Assembly (NCBI GenBank): GCA_039931575.1 | Contig: JBDTRS010000001.1 | Location: 1-45,468, forward strand | DNA from: Gaiellaceae bacterium | Lineage (GTDB): Bacteria > Actinomycetota > Thermoleophilia > Gaiellales > Gaiellaceae | Length of the DNA: 45,468 bases | Direction: 5' to 3' | Shown here: positions 4,241 through 11,594 of the stretch, piece after piece | Position numbering within the stretch: the first letter of the stretch is position 1 | How the letters are laid out: every line of letters begins with the position of its first letter | Notes under the pieces: generated by a model | Database searches by the model: none | The model's input: only the letters and a program-made list of their open reading frames with translations | Told to the model about the DNA's origin: nothing | Made by a program: the position numbers and the translations under genes

Positions 4241-5602
4241 TCAGACCTCGGCTTCGTAGACGGCTGCGATGGGCTGGCTGAGCGTAGAAACCGGGAAGTT
4301 GAGCTCTGCCTCCGCCTGCTCTCTCAGTGCAGCTTGATGCGGCGCGCCGGCGGTTGAAACAAGATCGCGGAGTTTAGTGTCGAGCTGTCGAGTGAGTAGT
4401 TCGAGGGCGACTAACGCGGCCTCGGCCGCACCCTCGTCCTCGGGAACTCGGATTGAGCGTTGCCGCAATTCCAGGGCTCGGATTATGAGCTCACCCGTCG
4501 CTGCCGGCAGGTCGTCTTCGTAAACGACATTCTCCGAAGCCATAACAGTCAAGCGACGTTGTCCCATCAACTGCTCGGATCTCACGCTTAACGGCGCGTT
4601 GCCAAACTGGACCGTGCGGGTCTTCGCACCGGATGGGAGAAAGTCAGCCGGAAACCGCCTTCCTCCGAGGGCGGGTCTGAGTTGTGCGGCGATGTCGGTT
4701 GCCACTTCTCCGAGGTTGGTTACAAAACGCTCCCGCTTGATCTCGCCGCGCCCCGCGGCCAGGAGGTGGCGAATGCTCCCCATCCGCAGGGTGTCGTCGT
4801 AAAGCTCCGTAAGCCTCTCGTCGCCCAGGCCGACCGCTCGGAGCACACAGCTATCGAGAGCCCGCTGCTTGTCATTTTTCTGGCCCTTCGAGGCAGGGAG
4901 CCGCTCGCCCTCGAGAAGAGCGGCCGTCGCAGTGCGCCATTCAGCCGCAAGCGTCGGATCCAACTTCCGGATGTCAGGAACCTGGAGGCCGCGAAGAACT
5001 TCAGTTCGAACTTCAAGCGCACCCTGGCCCATCGAGGTTGCTCCGAATGTTTCGCAGAGCATCACGAACCACATCGAACACAGCAGACCAATCAGCAGTT
5101 CCTCGCCCACACCTGGCCTAGCGTTGACCTGGTTGAACCGTTGGTCTACACGAACGGGTTCATCCAGGATGAACGGCGCGAAGTACTCGTCGAATGCTTT
5201 GAGCAGGGCGATGCGGGCCGGCGGCGGCATCGCCTGGTTTTGATACCAAAGGCGCTCTTTAGGCTTGACTGCCGGCGTGTCTTTCCAGTACCCGCCCACC
5301 TCGCCGCCAGAAGTCTTGTGACGCTGTTTAGCGCCCCACTTAATATAGGCAGCGGCGCCAGTGCCGACGAAGTTTTCGACCGCCTGATCGCAGAGGAAGA
5401 TTCTTAGGTGGGTCGATGAAACTGATTGAAGGAAGCGATCGCGCTTCGCATCCGAGGTTCGAAAGACGCTCTCTAGGAATTGCGGCTCGATCTGAAAAGT
5501 GTTGACCCGCTCCTCATCGACATAGAAAAACGGGTTCAGAAAGGTCTTGACGCCAAGTCGCACGTCGGCCAACTCGTCGAGGCGGGTCAACCCAGTCGTC
5601 AT
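4241..5602 (-). CDS. Target-recognition (TaqI_C/Eco57I-type specificity) subunit of a split type IIG-like enzyme, with about 200 aa of uncharacterised C-terminal extension
   Basis: ATG at 5602-5600 overlaps the upstream TGA (ATGA). LADVRLGVKTFLNPFFYVDEE and LLIGLLCSMWFVMLCETFGATSMGQGALEVRTEVLRGLQVPD resemble the C-terminal specificity domain of gamma-class N6-adenine methylases. Assignment made by eye. Confidence 0.6.
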   Translation of the reverse strand: MTTGLTRLDELADVRLGVKTFLNPFFYVDEERVNTFQIEPQFLESVFRTSDAKRDRFLQSVSSTHLRIFLCDQAVENFVGTGAAAYIKWGAKQRHKTSGGEVGGYWKDTPAVKPKERLWYQNQAMPPPARIALLKAFDEYFAPFILDEPVRVDQRFNQVNARPGVGEELLIGLLCSMWFVMLCETFGATSMGQGALEVRTEVLRGLQVPDIRKLDPTLAAEWRTATAALLEGERLPASKGQKNDKQRALDSCVLRAVGLGDERLTELYDDTLRMGSIRHLLAAGRGEIKRERFVTNLGEVATDIAAQLRPALGGRRFPADFLPSGAKTRTVQFGNAPLSVRSEQLMGQRRLTVMASENVVYEDDLPAATGELIIRALELRQRSIRVPEDEGAAEAALVALELLTRQLDTKLRDLVSTAGAPHQAALREQAEAELNFPVSTLSQPIAAVYEAEV

Positions 5603-7635
5603 GTGTGCAGGTAGTCCGTCTCCATGACCTCGAGCAGCACTCGCGGCGCCCTCATTGGAAGGTGCCACGGGAGCACCCGCCTATGGTCCTGGAGTTTCCC
5701 GAGCTCCTTGGCTCGAGAACCGATCCGTAACCGAACGGAGGCGTCTTCAAATGGCACTGAGGCTGATTCCACGCGCCCCGCGAGTGCATCGAGGGCCGCC
5801 CATCGGTCCCCACCTTCCTCAGTTGTGATTTCAGCGAGGGTTCTCTTCAGAGACACGAAACGGAGTGGGTAATCGTCCTGGAACGTCAGTGGGCTGGCGG
5901 GCTTCTCCGCGATCGTGACGACCGTGTTGATGGCAGCTTGAGGGAAGAATGGTTCTGCTTCCGATCCGATGACGGCGATCAATCGAGTGTCTCGAAGAAG
6001 GAACAACTGCAAGGCGATTCCATATTCGGTCGCGAGCCAAGCGTTGGACGTGACGAAGCCAACCCGTCCGCCTTCGCTAAGCACATCGAGGGCGTGGATG
6101 AAGAAGAGGACGTAGATGTCTAGGAGCTCCTTTTCACCCACGTTCGCCTTAAGCGCAATCTTCTGTACGCGCCCGCGGTAAGACGGGTCGAGGTCGTCCA
6201 GCTTCTGCCACCGAAGGTACGGCGGGTTCCCGACAATCGCATCAAACGCGGGAGCGATGACGGGAATCTTCTCTTGCCCTTCGCCCGCCCGCGCTGGCGG
6301 GAAGAGATGAGTGTCGCCTCGATCGAAGTCGAAGAAATCTGAGACCAGGACGCGTGGGAAGTTGTTCTGCTCCGTGAAATCCTGGCGGCAGAGATTGATC
6401 ACGGCGAGCTCGGTCGGAAAATGGCTGATGTCTACTCCCCAAATCGCCTCGAGCCGTTCGCCGTGAGTCTGAGCGGCACCGGTCTGCTTCAACCGGTCGT
6501 AGGATCGGATCAGGAACTCGCCGGTTCCACACGCCGGGTCGAGCACGCTCTTCGTTGAGCCGTCAACACAGAAGGCGACGATCAAGTCAGCGAGCTCCGC
6601 CGACGTGAAGTACTGGCCGAGAAGGTCTCGCTCCTCCACCGGAATTAGATGCTCGAACACCGACCCCAGAACTGCCGCGTCGAGGCCCGACCAGTCGTAA
6701 GTGTTGAGGCGCTCGAGCAGCTGCACGAGCCCGTTCTCCGCGGCCGCCGACAGCGGCAGCGTGTCCAGGACAACATCGTCCGCGTAGAGCGCCTCGTAGT
6801 CGACAGCCCTGATCGCCGCCCAGATGTTCTCCAGCTGCGGGCGAAGCGGCTTGTCCGCTCGGACTTTGAACGGTGGGAGCTCCTTGGAGTGACCAGCGTA
6901 GGCAAGGTAGAAAACTGCTTGCCCGACGAGCCGATAAGTGAGCTGTGCCGCGGCTCGCTCGTACAGCACCTCAGCCTTCGGTGCCGTCATCCCTTGGGCC
7001 TGTGCCCAGGCATGGATGCTCGATCGAAGTGTCTTGTCTGACGTGGCCGCGCTCCGTACACCTGTCGCCACCGCCTGCCGGATCTCTCGGACTTCTCGGC
7101 TTAGCCACTCGACGAAAACGGACGGTTCGAGGATTTGCCCGCCCACGGCGCCGGTATCGCGGAGCGCCGCGAGTGACGTGAGCAGATCACGCGCCCGCCC
7201 GCGGAGCGCAGCGACCATGGCGGGTTTGCCGACGTAATCCTTAGTGCTCACCACAGCCAACTCCGGGAAACGGGAGAGCGGGTCGTTTCGAAACGTCTCA
7301 GTTAGCCCGGCAGCGTTAGCCGGTGCGGATGGCGTCTGGTGAATGACAGTCTCGCGTTGGTTCCATTGGACGCAGTACGGAGCGCCGACGCGGCGCGCCT
7401 TCTTGATCACATCGTTCTGGAACTCAGCATCGGTTATGGGCGTTGAGAGAGTCTTGAGCTCGACCGCCGCCAGCGCGTCCAAGTCGCGAACATTCCAAAT
7501 GACGAGGTCTGATCGTTTCTGATCTGCATACTGCTTCTCTTGGCCCACGTCCTCAATGCGCAGTCCAGGCCTGGCGCTGAGGTCGGCCCCCATCCATTGA
7601 AGTACGTCTCCCTGGAACTCGAGCTCCGTGGCCAT
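5599..7635 (-). CDS. Type IIG-like restriction/modification protein: N-terminal PD-(D/E)xK-like nuclease motif plus gamma-class N6-adenine DNA methyltransferase
   Basis: D43-x15-E59-x-K61 (SDLVIWNVRDLDALAAVELK). AdoMet motif VLDPACGTGEFL. Catalytic motif IVGNPPYLRW. Eco57I-family-like tail TSNAWLATEYG. Confidence 0.75.
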   Translation of the reverse strand: MATELEFQGDVLQWMGADLSARPGLRIEDVGQEKQYADQKRSDLVIWNVRDLDALAAVELKTLSTPITDAEFQNDVIKKARRVGAPYCVQWNQRETVIHQTPSAPANAAGLTETFRNDPLSRFPELAVVSTKDYVGKPAMVAALRGRARDLLTSLAALRDTGAVGGQILEPSVFVEWLSREVREIRQAVATGVRSAATSDKTLRSSIHAWAQAQGMTAPKAEVLYERAAAQLTYRLVGQAVFYLAYAGHSKELPPFKVRADKPLRPQLENIWAAIRAVDYEALYADDVVLDTLPLSAAAENGLVQLLERLNTYDWSGLDAAVLGSVFEHLIPVEERDLLGQYFTSAELADLIVAFCVDGSTKSVLDPACGTGEFLIRSYDRLKQTGAAQTHGERLEAIWGVDISHFPTELAVINLCRQDFTEQNNFPRVLVSDFFDFDRGDTHLFPPARAGEGQEKIPVIAPAFDAIVGNPPYLRWQKLDDLDPSYRGRVQKIALKANVGEKELLDIYVLFFIHALDVLSEGGRVGFVTSNAWLATEYGIALQLFLLRDTRLIAVIGSEAEPFFPQAAINTVVTIAEKPASPLTFQDDYPLRFVSLKRTLAEITTEEGGDRWAALDALAGRVESASVPFEDASVRLRIGSRAKELGKLQDHRRVLPWHLPMRAPRVLLEVMETDYLHT

Positions 7636-7686
7636 GAACGAAGCCTAGAGTCGGCTCCGGTCCTCATCCGGCAGTGGGCAACTTCT

Positions 7687-8004
7687 TTGGGGTGGGCGCA
7701 CCCGTCTTCGTTACGCCGGTGGCGCCTCGTCAGCGACACTCGGACGAATGGCATCAAGCAGTTCGCAAACTGCGTCGAGCCCTTCAAGCTCGAGTTCCGG
7801 GACAAGCGCGCCCGCACTCGCGAGGGCGTCTCGAAGGATGAAGGCGCCCACGGCATACGGGTCGGCGTAACCGCGCTCAGGTGGCGCGATGAGCACATTC
7901 GCCCCGAGATCCGGGTGGCTCGCACGGGCCGCCGAGTCCTGTTCCCGGTGAAGGAGCTGGAGCGCTGGCTAGAGAGCCACGCTACGCGCCCACTTCTTCG
8001 CTAG
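7687..8004 (+). CDS. Excisionase/AlpA-type (HTH_17, MerR-superfamily) DNA-binding protein; start uncertain
   Basis: C-terminus DEGAHGIRVGVTALRWRDEHIRPEIRVARTGRRVLFPVKELERWLE fits the excisionase-family HTH. High third-position GC in this frame from about 7700. The listed start is the first in-frame TTG (7687). The track ORF starts at TTG 7540, inside the methylase gene. Confidence 0.5.
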   Translation: MGWAHPSSLRRWRLVSDTRTNGIKQFANCVEPFKLEFRDKRARTREGVSKDEGAHGIRVGVTALRWRDEHIRPEIRVARTGRRVLFPVKELERWLESHATRPLLR

Positions 8005-8294
8005 CCGCTTTTGGAAAGGAGAGCCTCTAGCTCGTCCAGAGCAGGGGAGATCCGAGACCAACCCTCGTCCCAGCGCACGTCCAACGATTCACTGGGGCGG
8101 CAGACGGAGGCCGAGAGTTCGTACAGCTTGTCGCAGCTAGTTGAGATGCCCTTGAACTCCGAGATCTGCGAGAGGCCAGCGCACGAGAGCAGCAGCCGCT
8201 CAAGTCGAGAGCGAATGACGTATGCCGCGTTCGGGTCAACGGCCGCCTCGCGGACGGCGGCGACCTGGTCAAGGCATTGCTCGATCGAAGGCAT
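8001..8294 (-). CDS. Small (97 aa) helical hypothetical protein, third gene of the channel-NTase operon
   Basis: ATG 8294-8292 lies 26 nt inside the end of the NTase gene. No motif recognised (no His, three Cys). Coding status supported mainly by operon packing. Confidence 0.5.
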   Translation of the reverse strand: MPSIEQCLDQVAAVREAAVDPNAAYVIRSRLERLLLSCAGLSQISEFKGISTSCDKLYELSASVCRPSESLDVRWDEGWSRISPALDELEALLSKSG

Positions 8295-8973
8295 CTACTC
8301 TCCTCTGTATGTCTTGAAAAAGGGTAGCTGCCCTTTCCGTCGACGTCACCACGTCCTGGGTCGTTGCGTCGAAAGGCAGATCGCTTCGTCCCTGTTGGTG
8401 GAGCCGGAACCCGTAGAGCGTCTGAAGTTCATCCACCGTCTCGGGTGAGAGCCGGAGCGTCGCGCTTAGCGTTTCAAACGGACTGGCACGGCCGAAGTCG
8501 GGCTGACCGGTGACGTAGCAGCCCAGGATGAACGCGTGTCGGAGGGCCGTAGCTACGACCGCCATCTCGAAGTTCGGTGAATGATCGCCGCGGAGAGACT
8601 TCGCAACGTCCTGCAAAACCACGGTGAAGGCCTGCATCTCATCAGTCGCCCTTCGATAGCGGGGGAGTCCGGCCAGAAGCTGCTCTAGGGGATCGTTCTC
8701 CTCCGGGGTCACCGCTCGCCCCTCAAGCTTCACGTGGTGGAGGAAGAGCGATCCGTAGGCACACATCGCCTCCAGTTCGCCCCAAGAAAACTGCATCGGC
8801 GAGAAGGCGTGGCCGCTCAGTTCAAGCCACGCGAGTTGTGGATCCTGGGATACGGCGTCCCGCCACTCGCCGTCCCCGCCCGCCACGAGGATGTCTATGT
8901 CACTTAGTTCGTCGGCGTCCCCGCGTGCGAATGAGCCGTATAGCCAGACGGAGGTGCCGTGCCTCAGCGCCAC
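8269..8973 (-). CDS. Pol-beta-superfamily minimal nucleotidyltransferase with a helical C-terminal domain
   Basis: LYGSFARGDADELSDIDILV gives the G13-S14...D25-x-D27 NTase signature. GTG start 8973-8971 overlaps the upstream stop by 10 nt. No Rx4-6H HEPN motif in the about 170-aa C-terminal part. Confidence 0.75.
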   Translation of the reverse strand: MALRHGTSVWLYGSFARGDADELSDIDILVAGGDGEWRDAVSQDPQLAWLELSGHAFSPMQFSWGELEAMCAYGSLFLHHVKLEGRAVTPEENDPLEQLLAGLPRYRRATDEMQAFTVVLQDVAKSLRGDHSPNFEMAVVATALRHAFILGCYVTGQPDFGRASPFETLSATLRLSPETVDELQTLYGFRLHQQGRSDLPFDATTQDVVTSTERAATLFQDIQRRVDAFDRAMP

Positions 8974-9848
8974 CGGGTGATCCGTCGGAACAAGATCGTG
9001 ATGAAGAGACCAAACCAGACCAGTCCAACGATCAGCTCCGAGAGGGCCGTTACCTTCGCCGCTGTCGAGGCGAGTACAACGCTCGATAGCCCGTTGTAGC
9101 CCGTCACGCTGTCTGCGCTGAGCAAGAGATAGTCCGCAGTTGTCGTCCCTCCGCGCACGTCATGAACGCCGCCGACGAGGTTGAAAATGATCGGGAACAC
9201 GACGAGGGTCAAGAGTAGGAAGCTCACGAGGAGTGTTAAGCCGCGCTCACCGTTACCCCAGATCACACGGTTGGCCTGGCTGGCCACCCACCTCGCCCCG
9301 GAGGCCGCGCGACCGATCGTGTTGAAGTGCTGCTTGTAGTAGCTGCTGGACGCGCGGAACGCGCCCCAGAGGTGCGCTTCGTTTGCACGGAGAGCTTGGA
9401 GGCGAAACAGCCTGGCATCGCGGGGGTGCCCGAGCGCGTAGGCCTCACGCGCAAGCTCGGCCGCAGCAAGCGAGCGGAGTTCCGGTTCAGGCGGAAGGTT
9501 CGGTCGCATCTCGTTAAACGGGATAAAGCAACCTCTGAACTGCGGGAACATGAACTTCGTGCTCTGAAGCGTGAGCTTCGGGAACTCGCAGTCGATGAAC
9601 TTGCAGCCGTCGAACTGGCTGTTCCTGATCTCCGCCTTCCTGAAGTAACAAGAGATGAACGCGCAGTCGATGAACTTGGAGTCCGCGATCTCACAGCCCT
9701 TGAAGCTCACGTTGGCGAAGGTGCAATGCGCAAACATCCCGTGCTGGATGGTGTGACCATCCAGGCGCTCCGAGAAGGCGACATCTGAGTAAGCCCACGG
9801 GTCACGCAGGGCAGCGAGCGGCCGGTTTACGAGAAGCGCATCTGTCAA
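8964..9848 (-). CDS. Pentapeptide-repeat protein fused to a 2TM K+-channel-like (Ion_trans_2-type) pore domain
   Basis: Residues about 36-107 have strict 5-residue periodicity (CTFAN VSFKG CEIAD SKFID CAFIS CYFRK AEIRN SQFDG CKFID CEFPK). C-terminus has TM1 LTLLVSFLLLTLVVFPIIFNLV, a pore/filter-like stretch ADYLLLSADSVTGYNG, and TM2 LSELIVGLVWFGLFITILF. SD-like GAGGG lies upstream of ATG 9848. Confidence 0.75.
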   Translation of the reverse strand: MTDALLVNRPLAALRDPWAYSDVAFSERLDGHTIQHGMFAHCTFANVSFKGCEIADSKFIDCAFISCYFRKAEIRNSQFDGCKFIDCEFPKLTLQSTKFMFPQFRGCFIPFNEMRPNLPPEPELRSLAAAELAREAYALGHPRDARLFRLQALRANEAHLWGAFRASSSYYKQHFNTIGRAASGARWVASQANRVIWGNGERGLTLLVSFLLLTLVVFPIIFNLVGGVHDVRGGTTTADYLLLSADSVTGYNGLSSVVLASTAAKVTALSELIVGLVWFGLFITILFRRITRWR

Positions 9849-9930
9849 TGGCTTACCCTCATCGATCCTCTGCCCGCGACCACTCGTGCGATTCTTCCAG
9901 GCGTTGCGGTCGGCAGACGGAGGCTCGCGG

Positions 9931-10059: not shown

Positions 10060-10103
10060 GGTGCGCCTGGCAGGATTCGAACCTGCGACCTGCGGATTAG
10101 AAG
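10060..10103 (-). pseudogene. 3' fragment of tRNA-Arg(TCT): anticodon loop to acceptor end (att-site relic)
   Basis: Reverse complement reads CTTCTAA-TCCGC-AGGTC-GCAGG-TTCGAAT-CCTGC-CAGGCGC-A. That is the anticodon loop (TCT), 3' anticodon stem, variable loop, T-arm with TTCGAAT loop, 3' acceptor strand and discriminator. No matching 5' acceptor strand, D-arm or 5' anticodon stem lies upstream. Confidence 0.7.
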
Positions 10104-10115
10104 TTCGACGGTCGC

Positions 10116-11594
10116 TTACGCAAAAGCTGCTTCGACGAGCACCGTGTGGCGCTGCGCCTCAACAGCGAAGTCGGCTCTGGCGCCTGAGAGGTAGTTGTCA
10201 CTAGCCTCGGCGAGAATCGCTTCAAACGCAGCCGCAACCGTAGTATCGAACTGGCTACCAACTGCCTGAGCCAAGCGCATCCGAGCCACCCTGCTGGGCA
10301 TCGCGTCGCGATAGGGACGGCCGGACGTCATCGCGTTGTACGCATCAGCCACAGCGATAATCCGGGAGATGATGGGTATCTCGTCCCCACCGATTCCGTC
10401 GGGATAGCCGTTGCCGTCCATCCGCTCATGATGGTGGCGAACGATGTTTGCGATCTCGGCGTAATCATCAACATTCCTCAGAATCCGCTCTCCGATCTCC
10501 GAGTGTTCTTCCATTACCCGGCGCTCCTCTAGAGTCAGGGGCCCCGGCTTCTCCAGTAGCCCAGCCGGGAGGCCGACTTTGCCGATGTCGTGCACAAGAC
10601 CAGCCAGGTGAGCGAGTTGCCTGTCTCCTTCAGACAATCCGAGGCGGGCCGCTATATCTCTTGCGTAGACGGCCACTGCCGCGGAGTGACCCGCGGTGTA
10701 CCGATCTCGCGCATCCAACGCCGCTACGAGGGCACTCGCAAAAGACAGGCTCGCACCCTCAAGTCGATCCTTCGCGATGCTTAGGTCGCTCGCCAGCTGC
10801 CTTTGCTCCTGATAAAGAACGAACAGTCTTTGAGCCGCGACGGCCGGGACAAAGAAGAGAAGAACCGTCCAGGGTGAGAGGGACTCGTAGGAATACGCAA
10901 GAACAGCGATAACTGGCGCGTACAACGGAACCGCCGCAAAGGCCAGAAGGCCCATCGTTTTGACCGTTTCGACTGGAGGACGTCGTCTGAGCCAAGCCGT
11001 TGTCGTTGCGAGCCCGATATCGGCTGTGGCTTCGGTGACCGCGGCCACAGCCACCGCGACAACCAGCGCTCCAAACGCTTCGTGAGCCTGCGGGACGAGC
11101 GCGGCCGCGACCCCTGCGAGGGCGCCGACGATCGCCCTTGATGCCGTCCAGATCACCCATCGAGTCCGCGGCCGGCCGTAGTCCGCAAGCATGGCGCAGG
11201 CCCCGACCAGCATCGCTTCGAAAGGGCCGTAGACAACGGCTGCAAAAAGCAGAGGGAGCCCCGAAACGGACACCTGGGCATACGAAGTCACATAGATGCT
11301 TTGGCGCTCCGCGGCAAGCGCAACCGCACAGAGCGCGACAAGAACCCAAACCGGCCCATGAATAGTGGTGCCCGACCAGAGAAGGAGACCTGTGATTATC
11401 CCGACGAGAAGAACAAGGGCCGCCGCGTAGCACCTGATGCCAAGCGGCAATCGCTCGTTCTTGGCCGCAGCGTCATTCCCATGAGAAACCCTTGAAACTC
11501 CCCCAAAAGGGGTATAAGCTCGCGGAGCCGTTATCCCCCGTATCGGAGGAGACAATGCTTCGCTGGGTCGCACAATTCTCGACGCTTCTGACAA
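10116..11594 (-). CDS. Multi-pass membrane sensor with HD-GYP domain (c-di-GMP phosphodiesterase family)
   Basis: HDIGKVGLP and HHERMDGNGYPDG motifs. The N-terminal about 250 aa are hydrophobic helices. The true start may be downstream of 11594. Confidence 0.85.
   Translation of the reverse strand: MSEASRIVRPSEALSPPIRGITAPRAYTPFGGVSRVSHGNDAAAKNERLPLGIRCYAAALVLLVGIITGLLLWSGTTIHGPVWVLVALCAVALAAERQSIYVTSYAQVSVSGLPLLFAAVVYGPFEAMLVGACAMLADYGRPRTRWVIWTASRAIVGALAGVAAALVPQAHEAFGALVVAVAVAAVTEATADIGLATTTAWLRRRPPVETVKTMGLLAFAAVPLYAPVIAVLAYSYESLSPWTVLLFFVPAVAAQRLFVLYQEQRQLASDLSIAKDRLEGASLSFASALVAALDARDRYTAGHSAAVAVYARDIAARLGLSEGDRQLAHLAGLVHDIGKVGLPAGLLEKPGPLTLEERRVMEEHSEIGERILRNVDDYAEIANIVRHHHERMDGNGYPDGIGGDEIPIISRIIAVADAYNAMTSGRPYRDAMPSRVARMRLAQAVGSQFDTTVAAAFEAILAEASDNYLSGARADFAVEAQRHTVLVEAAFA

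Follow-up and report, generated by a model that had tools for sequence, protein, structure and literature searches.

Three overlapping genes in a Gaiellaceae genome

The window analysed here is a stretch of DNA of 45,468 nucleotides from Gaiellaceae bacterium (assembly GCA_039931575.1, contig JBDTRS010000001.1, positions 1 to 45,468, forward strand). It contains three genes on the minus strand, each overlapping the next. Gene 1 (8964-9848, TTG start) encodes a HalA-like effector of 294 amino acids, gene 2 (8269-8973, GTG start) a HalB-like nucleotidyltransferase of 234 amino acids, and gene 3 (8001-8294, ATG start) a small conserved partner protein of 97 amino acids, which we provisionally call HalC-like. 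HalA and HalB are reportedly the effector channel and the nucleotidyltransferase of the Hailong anti-phage system described by Tan et al. in Nature in 2025. The trio is probably a divergent, three-component relative of the Hailong abortive-infection system, carried on a small island of lower guanine-cytosine (GC) content. The channel-nucleotidyltransferase pair is a distant member of this known kind. New are a widespread three-gene sister clade, its strongly constrained, undescribed third protein, and a nucleotidyltransferase that usually lacks a C-terminal tyrosine.

The genes are packed tightly. The first 10 nucleotides of gene 2 overlap the 3′ end of gene 1, including its stop codon, and the start codon of gene 3 sits 26 nucleotides inside the 3′ end of gene 2. 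A Shine-Dalgarno-like GAGGG, read from the sequence, is located at 9856-9860 on the minus strand, 7 nucleotides upstream of the TTG of gene 1. A promoter and terminator scan found no sigma-70-type promoter and no convincing terminator above background at the operon. The original prediction for this DNA, made from its letters without database searches, had described the three overlapping minus-strand open reading frames (ORFs) at these positions as one operon, and both the frames and the operon structure hold. The prediction had read the start codon of gene 1 at 9848 as ATG. The codon is TTG, and the N-terminus that it defines is kept in an alignment of 59 homologues.

Pentapeptide-repeat channel

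The gene 1 protein is composed of a pentapeptide-repeat region and a two-transmembrane (2TM) channel. A hydrophobic residue occupies each fifth position of residues 29-109, and the protein scores 41.6 bits against the Pfam family Pentapeptide_4, above the cut-off of 38. Hydrophobic segments span residues ~200-231 and 264-291, and the filter-like stretch SVTGYNG is located between them, at residues 247-253. The match and the five-residue periodicity bear out the domain assignment made in the original prediction, which had also pointed to the filter-like stretch.

The AlphaFold2 model of the protein has a mean predicted local distance difference test score (pLDDT) of 89.9. It consists of an N-terminal pentapeptide-repeat β-helix (residues ~19-105), a cytoplasmic linker of four to five helices (residues 111-200) and a pore part, in which helix M1 (203-225) and helix M2 (262-293) flank a pore helix (237-248). 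The unit of M1, pore helix and M2 forms a predicted Kir-type pore.

HalA is the top match of this model in the fold search and the only one that extends over the full length (9nyi_A, E-value 2.9e-9, 332 columns, template modelling (TM) scores 0.50/0.45). The remaining fold matches cover only the β-helix formed by the pentapeptide part. BLASTP aligns residues 44-294 of gene 1 with residues 75-358 of the HalA protein from L045, a canonical Hailong locus, at 22% identity (E 4e-8). The best NCBIfam match is likewise HalA (NF051894, 47.4 bits), with the best stretch in the pentapeptide region at residues 40-102. The profile of the gene 1 family also matches transmembrane residues 50-136 of KirBac3.1 (E 2e-4). 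A separate account of HalA, in which it has "pentapeptide repeats plus an IRK potassium channel domain" (PMC13586616), agrees with this match.

Nucleotidyltransferase

The gene 2 protein is formed by a Pol-β nucleotidyltransferase core, with the residues G13 S14, D25 x D27 and the stretch Y73-GSLFLHH-80, and by a helical C-terminal domain. G13-S14 and D25-x-D27 do not vary among 50 homologues. The motif Rx4-6H was not found in gene 2, in line with the earlier call of a minimal Pol-β nucleotidyltransferase that has the G13-S14 and D25-x-D27 residues and lacks this motif. The C-terminus reads ...VDAFDRAMP, and the last tyrosine, Y187, lies 47 residues before the end.

The profile built from the 50 homologues has HalB as its best match in the PDB (9dbj/9dbh, E 2.3e-8). 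The alignment extends past the generic GS/DxD region to a common G(S/D)LF..H..EG motif. In the fold search with the AlphaFold2 model (mean pLDDT 95.2), HalB chains take the first 13 places, with alignments that extend over the full length (E 2e-6, TM-scores 0.53/0.56). HalB is also the best NCBIfam match (NF051895, 36.7 bits). As a control for this family model, the canonical-type HalB of locus L010 scores 220.8 bits.

Comparison with the canonical Hailong operon

Hailong is a two-gene operon (PMC13434031). Its effector is repressed by constitutive oligodeoxyadenylate, and phage DNA exonucleases trigger the system (PMC13434031, PMC13276650). HalA is a homotetramer that binds oligodeoxyadenylate where its subunits meet and, in the absence of this ligand, depolarises the membrane, so that the channel serves as the membrane-depolarising effector and the nucleotidyltransferase as an antitoxin-like regulator (PMC13434031, section 14). 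The comparison used PDB entries 9nyi (HalA) and 9dbh, 9dbi and 9dbj (HalB), NCBIfam models NF051894 and NF051895, and locus L045, whose HalB has the sequence of the PDB protein (100% identity) and in which HalA (359 amino acids) overlaps HalB (227 amino acids) by 4 nucleotides.

The trio in the window resembles the L045 operon in having the effector gene first and the nucleotidyltransferase gene second, joined by a stop/start overlap. Gene 1 has the architecture of HalA: the pentapeptide repeats form a cytoplasmic "crown", which a helical linker joins to a Kir-like 2TM pore. Gene 2 has the HalB motif set GS / DxD / G(S/D)LF..H..E / R / F together with the helical C-terminal domain. Fourteen positions are invariant in both clades in a joint MAFFT alignment of canonical-type and trio-type nucleotidyltransferases: G9, S10, R13, S20, D21, D23, L25, G58, L60, F61, H64, E68, R128 and F143 in HalB numbering. 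The last two, R128 and F143, fall in the helical domain. The systems also share a setting of mobile elements and defence islands.

There are also differences. The identity of the window proteins to HalA and HalB is only ~16-22%, and the effector has 294 amino acids, against 351-385 in canonical systems. The window nucleotidyltransferase lacks a terminal or sub-terminal tyrosine. The trio loci carry an obligate third gene, which the sampled canonical operons do not. Canonical-type HalB loci were sampled from viral and metagenomic contigs, and four distinct operons among them have a recognisable upstream HalA (L045/L046, L049, L050/L051 and L052). Locus L048 offers no more than a truncated HalA-like ORF, located where the contig ends. 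Neither a gene 3 homologue nor an overlapping downstream ORF follows canonical HalB in the four HalA-HalB operons or in L048. A HalB fragment gave no match by tblastn in the phage collection, and the literature searched contains no mention of a third Hailong gene or of a "HalC".

Tan et al. reportedly specify that the HalB tyrosine that primes synthesis is C-terminal. According to a review, HalB starts DNA synthesis on the hydroxyl of one of its own tyrosines, named there only as a tyrosine hydroxyl (PMC13434031). A tyrosine lies within the last 1-11 residues in 11/11 distinct canonical-type HalB sequences sampled, four of which end in it (...ESPY, ...TFDY, ...SINY and ...SDGY). A terminal tyrosine is absent from all 40 trio nucleotidyltransferases; six carry one among their last eight residues.

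The original prediction held that the composition of the trio matched no named system. This does not stand, as NCBIfam, profile and fold matches show genes 1 and 2 to be distantly homologous to HalA and HalB. The novelty that it suggested is retained in part: the third gene and the lack of a C-terminal tyrosine in the nucleotidyltransferase are new, whereas the pairing of channel and nucleotidyltransferase was known from Hailong. A PADLOC run on the window had been proposed as a check, with support expected from a hit on a nearby methylase pair and none on the trio. PADLOC matched the methylase (REase_MTase_IIG) and gave the trio only generic nucleotidyltransferase matches (PDC-S09, PDC-M05A); canonical HalA is likewise without a PADLOC match. 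Hailong (2025) is absent from PADLOC v2 (PMC13586616), and the missing trio hit therefore carries no information. Since the NCBIfam cut-offs exclude the trio proteins and PADLOC v2 has no Hailong model, trio loci are invisible in defence-system censuses.

HalB-type nucleotidyltransferases also occur without an adjoining HalA. They were observed at L010:3989-4672 (Rhizobium leguminosarum plasmid pCC283b_5), in L011 and L012, which are small plasmids of Klebsiella pneumoniae and Yersinia ruckeri, and in L053-L062. These enzymes pass the NCBIfam HalB cut-off or come near it (L010, 221 bits vs 190), and all keep a tyrosine in the last 1-11 residues. They adjoin genes for WYL-domain proteins, DUF1883 proteins or other ORFs. 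Because of these non-HalA neighbours, HalB-type enzymes may serve effectors or regulators besides HalA.

Conservation of the three-gene layout

Related loci were searched by scanning all six-frame ORFs with hidden Markov models of the three families. The channel, nucleotidyltransferase and gene 3 are present in the same order and on one strand in all 40 related loci, and gene 3 begins at or within the end of the nucleotidyltransferase gene in every one. The loci include 30 species from ~10 major lineages. The recurrence of the trio is far more than chance, because the genes, their order and their strand are the same in 40/40 loci. The synteny in unrelated genomes, which the original prediction had proposed to look for, is thus present. 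The third ORF exists also in L004, L005 and L007, where gene callers had missed it.

Contigs of one genome per species were scanned once with the nucleotidyltransferase motif YGSLFLHH. The scan yielded 30 loci in 30 species, out of 185,579 species genomes. The lineages are Actinomycetota, Acidobacteriota, Syntrophobacteraceae, Gamma- and Alphaproteobacteria, Bdellovibrionales, Gemmatimonadota, Nitrospirota, Binatia and Latescibacterota. On metagenomic contigs as well, homologues of the channel, the nucleotidyltransferase and gene 3 are repeatedly found together. The three proteins have diverged at comparable rates, with mean pairwise identities of 0.38, 0.38 and 0.34, and the pairwise identities are correlated among the proteins (r 0.77-0.86).

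Two loci depart from the intact layout, and both are decayed copies. In L042:6046-8060, a transposase ORF of insertion sequence (IS) type (6644-7615) lies between a truncated nucleotidyltransferase gene and gene 3. In L038:3709-5986, an ISL3-like transposase gene (4271-5503, minus strand) splits the channel gene. Such disrupted copies are consistent with selection against a toxic effector. The apparent channel-nucleotidyltransferase fusion P0183 was rejected as a frameshift read-through.

Much more distant channel-nucleotidyltransferase pairs, whose channels are 25-28% identical to gene 1, are found at L014:2478-4363 (Pseudomonas sp. GLE121 plasmid pGLE121P1) and L013:3941-5839 (Rhizobium sp. 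N324 pRspN324d). In both, the nucleotidyltransferase gene is followed by an overlapping ORF of 106-112 amino acids, which is unannotated in L013. The only motif common to these ORFs and gene 3 is F/Y-xx-R-x-R/K-xx-R. It hints that the ORFs may be homologous to gene 3. If they are, the three-gene layout predates the YGSLFLHH clade, and the tyrosine is not universal.

Small partner protein

The gene 3 protein contains two conserved blocks, C7..R15..DP..AY25-xx-R28-x-R30-xx-R33 and C65-(R/Q)-P-S68-E69-x-x-D-x-R74-W75-xxx-W79. Its homologues were found and aligned for 32 sequences (alignment A3), and in a library of 1.84 billion proteins the family is represented by 164 clusters at 50% identity. 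With few exceptions, its members are stand-alone proteins of 100-130 amino acids. Three residues are invariant among ~200 aligned members: Tyr25 (194/194), Arg33 (196/196) and Ser68 (203/203). Arg28, Arg30, Glu69, Arg74, Trp75 and Trp79 are each kept in more than 93%.

The protein has no histidine and no hydrophobic segment. No match was found in Pfam, NCBIfam, PADLOC or PHROGs, nor in the PDB by profile, in accordance with the earlier observation that gene 3 has no histidine and no known motif. Comparison by hhalign shows no similarity to canonical HalA or HalB. A likeness seen by eye between "CRPSES..RW" of gene 3 and "SRPSVS..EY" of HalB was dropped because of this result.

The window protein and its closest homologue (P0192, 85% identity) are ~22 residues short in the variable, proline-rich middle linker, which is complete in nearly all other members. 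The window protein retains every conserved residue despite the short linker. Two further ideas about the family were set aside. Long matches that could have served as Rosetta-stone evidence of domain fusions (P0305, P0312 and P0296) are frameshift read-throughs. The notion that gene 3 replaces an absent N-terminal piece of HalA is weak, as the residues by which the effector is shorter are missing from the N-terminus and the pore region alike.

Proposed mechanism and its alternatives

By analogy, a Hailong-type logic probably operates in the trio. The nucleotidyltransferase would constitutively make a nucleotide polymer, probably oligodeoxyadenylate, that holds the tetrameric channel closed by binding to its cytoplasmic domain. 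A phage nuclease would destroy or sequester the signal and thereby allow the channel to open, upon which the membrane would depolarise and the infected cell would stop growing. The original prediction had assigned an antitoxin-like role to the nucleotidyltransferase and a membrane-directed effector role to the channel. This division of roles, with a channel that would depolarise the membrane, is supported by what has been shown for Hailong (PMC13434031, section 14).

Gene 3 would supply in trans the hydroxyl that starts synthesis, or would carry or present the signal to the channel. We propose such a primer or carrier because the nucleotidyltransferase lacks a C-terminal tyrosine, gene 3 is always present, and Tyr25 and Ser68 never vary. 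The support is circumstantial, and this role is our leading hypothesis in a tentative sense only. A specific version, equally tentative, is that the self-priming tyrosine has moved to gene 3, so that DNA would be built on Tyr25 or Ser68 and the protein-DNA conjugate, in place of free oligodeoxyadenylate, would gate the channel. Defence-related reverse transcriptases of the DRT9, DRT1 and AbiK types use a hydroxyl of a protein as the start for DNA that is non-templated or homopolymeric (PMC13275509, PMC12483538). As a concept, they are a precedent both for a primer residue and for the restraint of an effector by DNA adducts. However, they have a reverse transcriptase fold rather than that of a Pol-β nucleotidyltransferase, and their primer is within the polymerase, whereas the separate primer protein is a hypothesis of this work.

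In Hailong, immunity is governed by a DNA signal that is made constitutively and is inhibitory, and the system is one of the first examples of this kind. A sister clade this widespread, which spans ~10 major lineages, many of them soil and sediment groups such as Thermoleophilia, Acidobacteriota, Gemmatimonadota and Nitrospirota, would show that such control is older and takes more forms than in the two-gene model published so far. The trio clade is a clean natural experiment on the priming, sizing or delivery of a DNA signal to a channel. If gene 3 primes, the trio would constitute a three-component immune switch of "primer protein, polymerase, DNA-gated channel".

Several observations weigh against the assignment of the trio to the Hailong type and against the mechanism derived from it. 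Both proteins score far under the NCBIfam equivalog cut-offs, gene 1 with 47.4 vs 250 bits for HalA and gene 2 with 36.7 vs 190 bits for HalB. The TM-scores of the window proteins against HalA and HalB are modest, ~0.5, and the aminoglycoside nucleotidyltransferase ANT(4′) is also a significant fold match of gene 2 (E 1e-4), ranked behind HalB. Alignment by hhalign joins only the N-terminal halves of the two proteins to canonical HalA and HalB (~81-83 columns, ~95.5% probability). Since the sequence profiles link these halves only, the kinship is real but distant, and its extension over the full length rests on the fold matches, the residues invariant in the MAFFT alignment and BLASTP. The product of the nucleotidyltransferase, the toxicity of the channel and the protection from phage are all predicted from the comparison with Hailong. 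The C-terminal tyrosine is inferred to be the primer of HalB from what Tan et al. reportedly state and from the conservation measured here. In 10/50 trio-family nucleotidyltransferases, one of the last 10 residues is a tyrosine, at the alignment position of Phe229 in the window protein; the loss of the tail tyrosine is thus not universal in the trio clade, though gene 3 is. Finally, the putatively homologous third ORFs of L013 and L014 have a phenylalanine where gene 3 has Tyr25.

The last two observations favour another role of gene 3 in a system that would still be of the Hailong type. The protein could be an adaptor or a second lock of the channel, an assembly factor of nucleotidyltransferase oligomers, or a sensor of the phage trigger. 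A fifth of the trio nucleotidyltransferases keep the near-terminal tyrosine and yet have gene 3. The small size of the protein, the conserved basic face of R28, R30 and R33, and the aromatic and acidic block of E69, D72, R74, W75 and W79 suit binding to proteins or nucleic acids. In ~200 sequences, however, Tyr25 is never replaced by phenylalanine or tryptophan, nor Ser68 by threonine or alanine, which is unusual for purely structural residues. Furthermore, gene 3 is found only with the nucleotidyltransferase clade in which 34/40 members have no tyrosine in the last eight residues. We regard an adaptor, lock or sensor as a serious possibility, if one short of the probable, and overall as at least as likely as a primer or carrier.

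MntA, a minimal Pol-β nucleotidyltransferase that acts as negative regulator of a toxic partner, modifies a tyrosine of HepT. The trio could accordingly be conceived as a module similar to type VII toxin-antitoxin systems, in which gene 2 would mono- or oligonucleotidylate gene 3 or the channel, as MntA does HepT, with no free DNA ligand. Tyrosine-directed nucleotidylation is a precedent for a nucleotidyltransferase that acts on a small partner protein, and the invariant tyrosine of gene 3 is the type of residue that MntA modifies. Weak MntA matches of gene 2 were obtained (NF047752, 23.7 bits, cut-off 60), and minimal nucleotidyltransferase antitoxins are among the fold matches of its N-terminal domain. 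HalB, however, surpasses MntA by profile and by fold, over the full length, and gene 2 has a large HalB-like helical C-terminal domain. The trio operon encodes no HEPN protein and contains neither a HEPN domain nor its Rx4-6H motif; the toxic partner would instead be a membrane channel with the fold of HalA. We therefore consider a module of this type unlikely.

A regulated ion channel with two accessory proteins that serves osmotic or ionic homeostasis or another part of normal physiology, instead of defence, is very improbable. The trio does sit among housekeeping genes in L005 and L006, with no obvious mobile element nearby. Its spread is patchy, however, with 30/185,579 species genomes in ~10 major lineages. 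The window copy is located in a lower-GC tract, and the genes flanking the trio are often those of integrases, IS elements, restriction-modification systems, defence-associated reverse transcriptases and further defence functions. IS elements have interrupted some copies, and the closest characterised relatives form a defence system.

A reading of gene 2 as an ANT/Lnu-type antibiotic nucleotidyltransferase with unrelated neighbours, which the original prediction had named as one that would make it a resistance gene, is effectively refuted: ANT(4′) kanamycin nucleotidyltransferase, AadA/ANT(9) and LinB are significant fold matches (E 1e-4 to 1e-3, TM-scores ~0.5), the aminoglycoside enzymes sharing the two-domain fold of nucleotidyltransferase and helical domain, but HalB outranks all of them, gene 2 scores 12.5 bits against the NCBIfam ANT(4′)-II model with a cut-off of 350 and lies outside that sequence family, its conserved motifs (YGSLFLHH, R145-H146 and R162) differ, and it is coupled to the channel and gene 3 in 40/40 loci.

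Genomic surroundings

The GC content of the window drops from ~0.71 to 0.58-0.63 between ~4 and 12 kb, a stretch that includes the trio. Downstream of the trio, on the minus strand, lies a gene for a methylase of 678 amino acids similar to type IIG restriction-modification enzymes (5599-7635; Pfam Eco57I and N6_Mtase; PADLOC REase_MTase_IIG, 1.8e-34). It is overlapped by a partner ORF of 475 amino acids on the same strand (4241-5668), which has a weak match to a PADLOC model of type II methyltransferases, in the C-terminal part of that model. The pair at 4241-7635 may be a split restriction-modification-specificity enzyme. It is context and stands outside the three-gene system.

The original prediction had placed the trio in a defence island that contained, besides the lower-GC tract and the methylase, an integrase relic, an excisionase-type helix-turn-helix protein and a tRNA relic. 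The tract and the restriction-modification-like methylase are confirmed. The excisionase-type helix-turn-helix ORF (7540-8004) is weak, with a HTH_17 match under the Pfam cut-off. A tRNA-like sequence at 10062-10127 on the minus strand is also below threshold (Rfam tRNA, 25.6 bits vs a gathering score of 29, E 0.04), and ARAGORN found no tRNA. A search with Pfam found no integrase relic.

The setting of a defence island is supported. In other loci, integrases, IS elements and HsdM adjoin the trio. The 116 flanking proteins include type I R subunits, type II and III methylases, defence-associated reverse transcriptases, Schlafen/AlbA_2 proteins and nSTAND proteins.

The tRNA-like sequence marks the upstream edge of the trio in the window and overlaps the 3′ end of the adjacent gene, whose stop codon is at 10116. 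It may be a relic of an integration site. The adjacent gene (10116-11594, minus strand) is located directly upstream of the trio, within the lower-GC stretch. It encodes a HD-GYP-type protein of 492 amino acids, composed of a multi-span membrane N-terminus and a HD_5 domain (E 2e-37).

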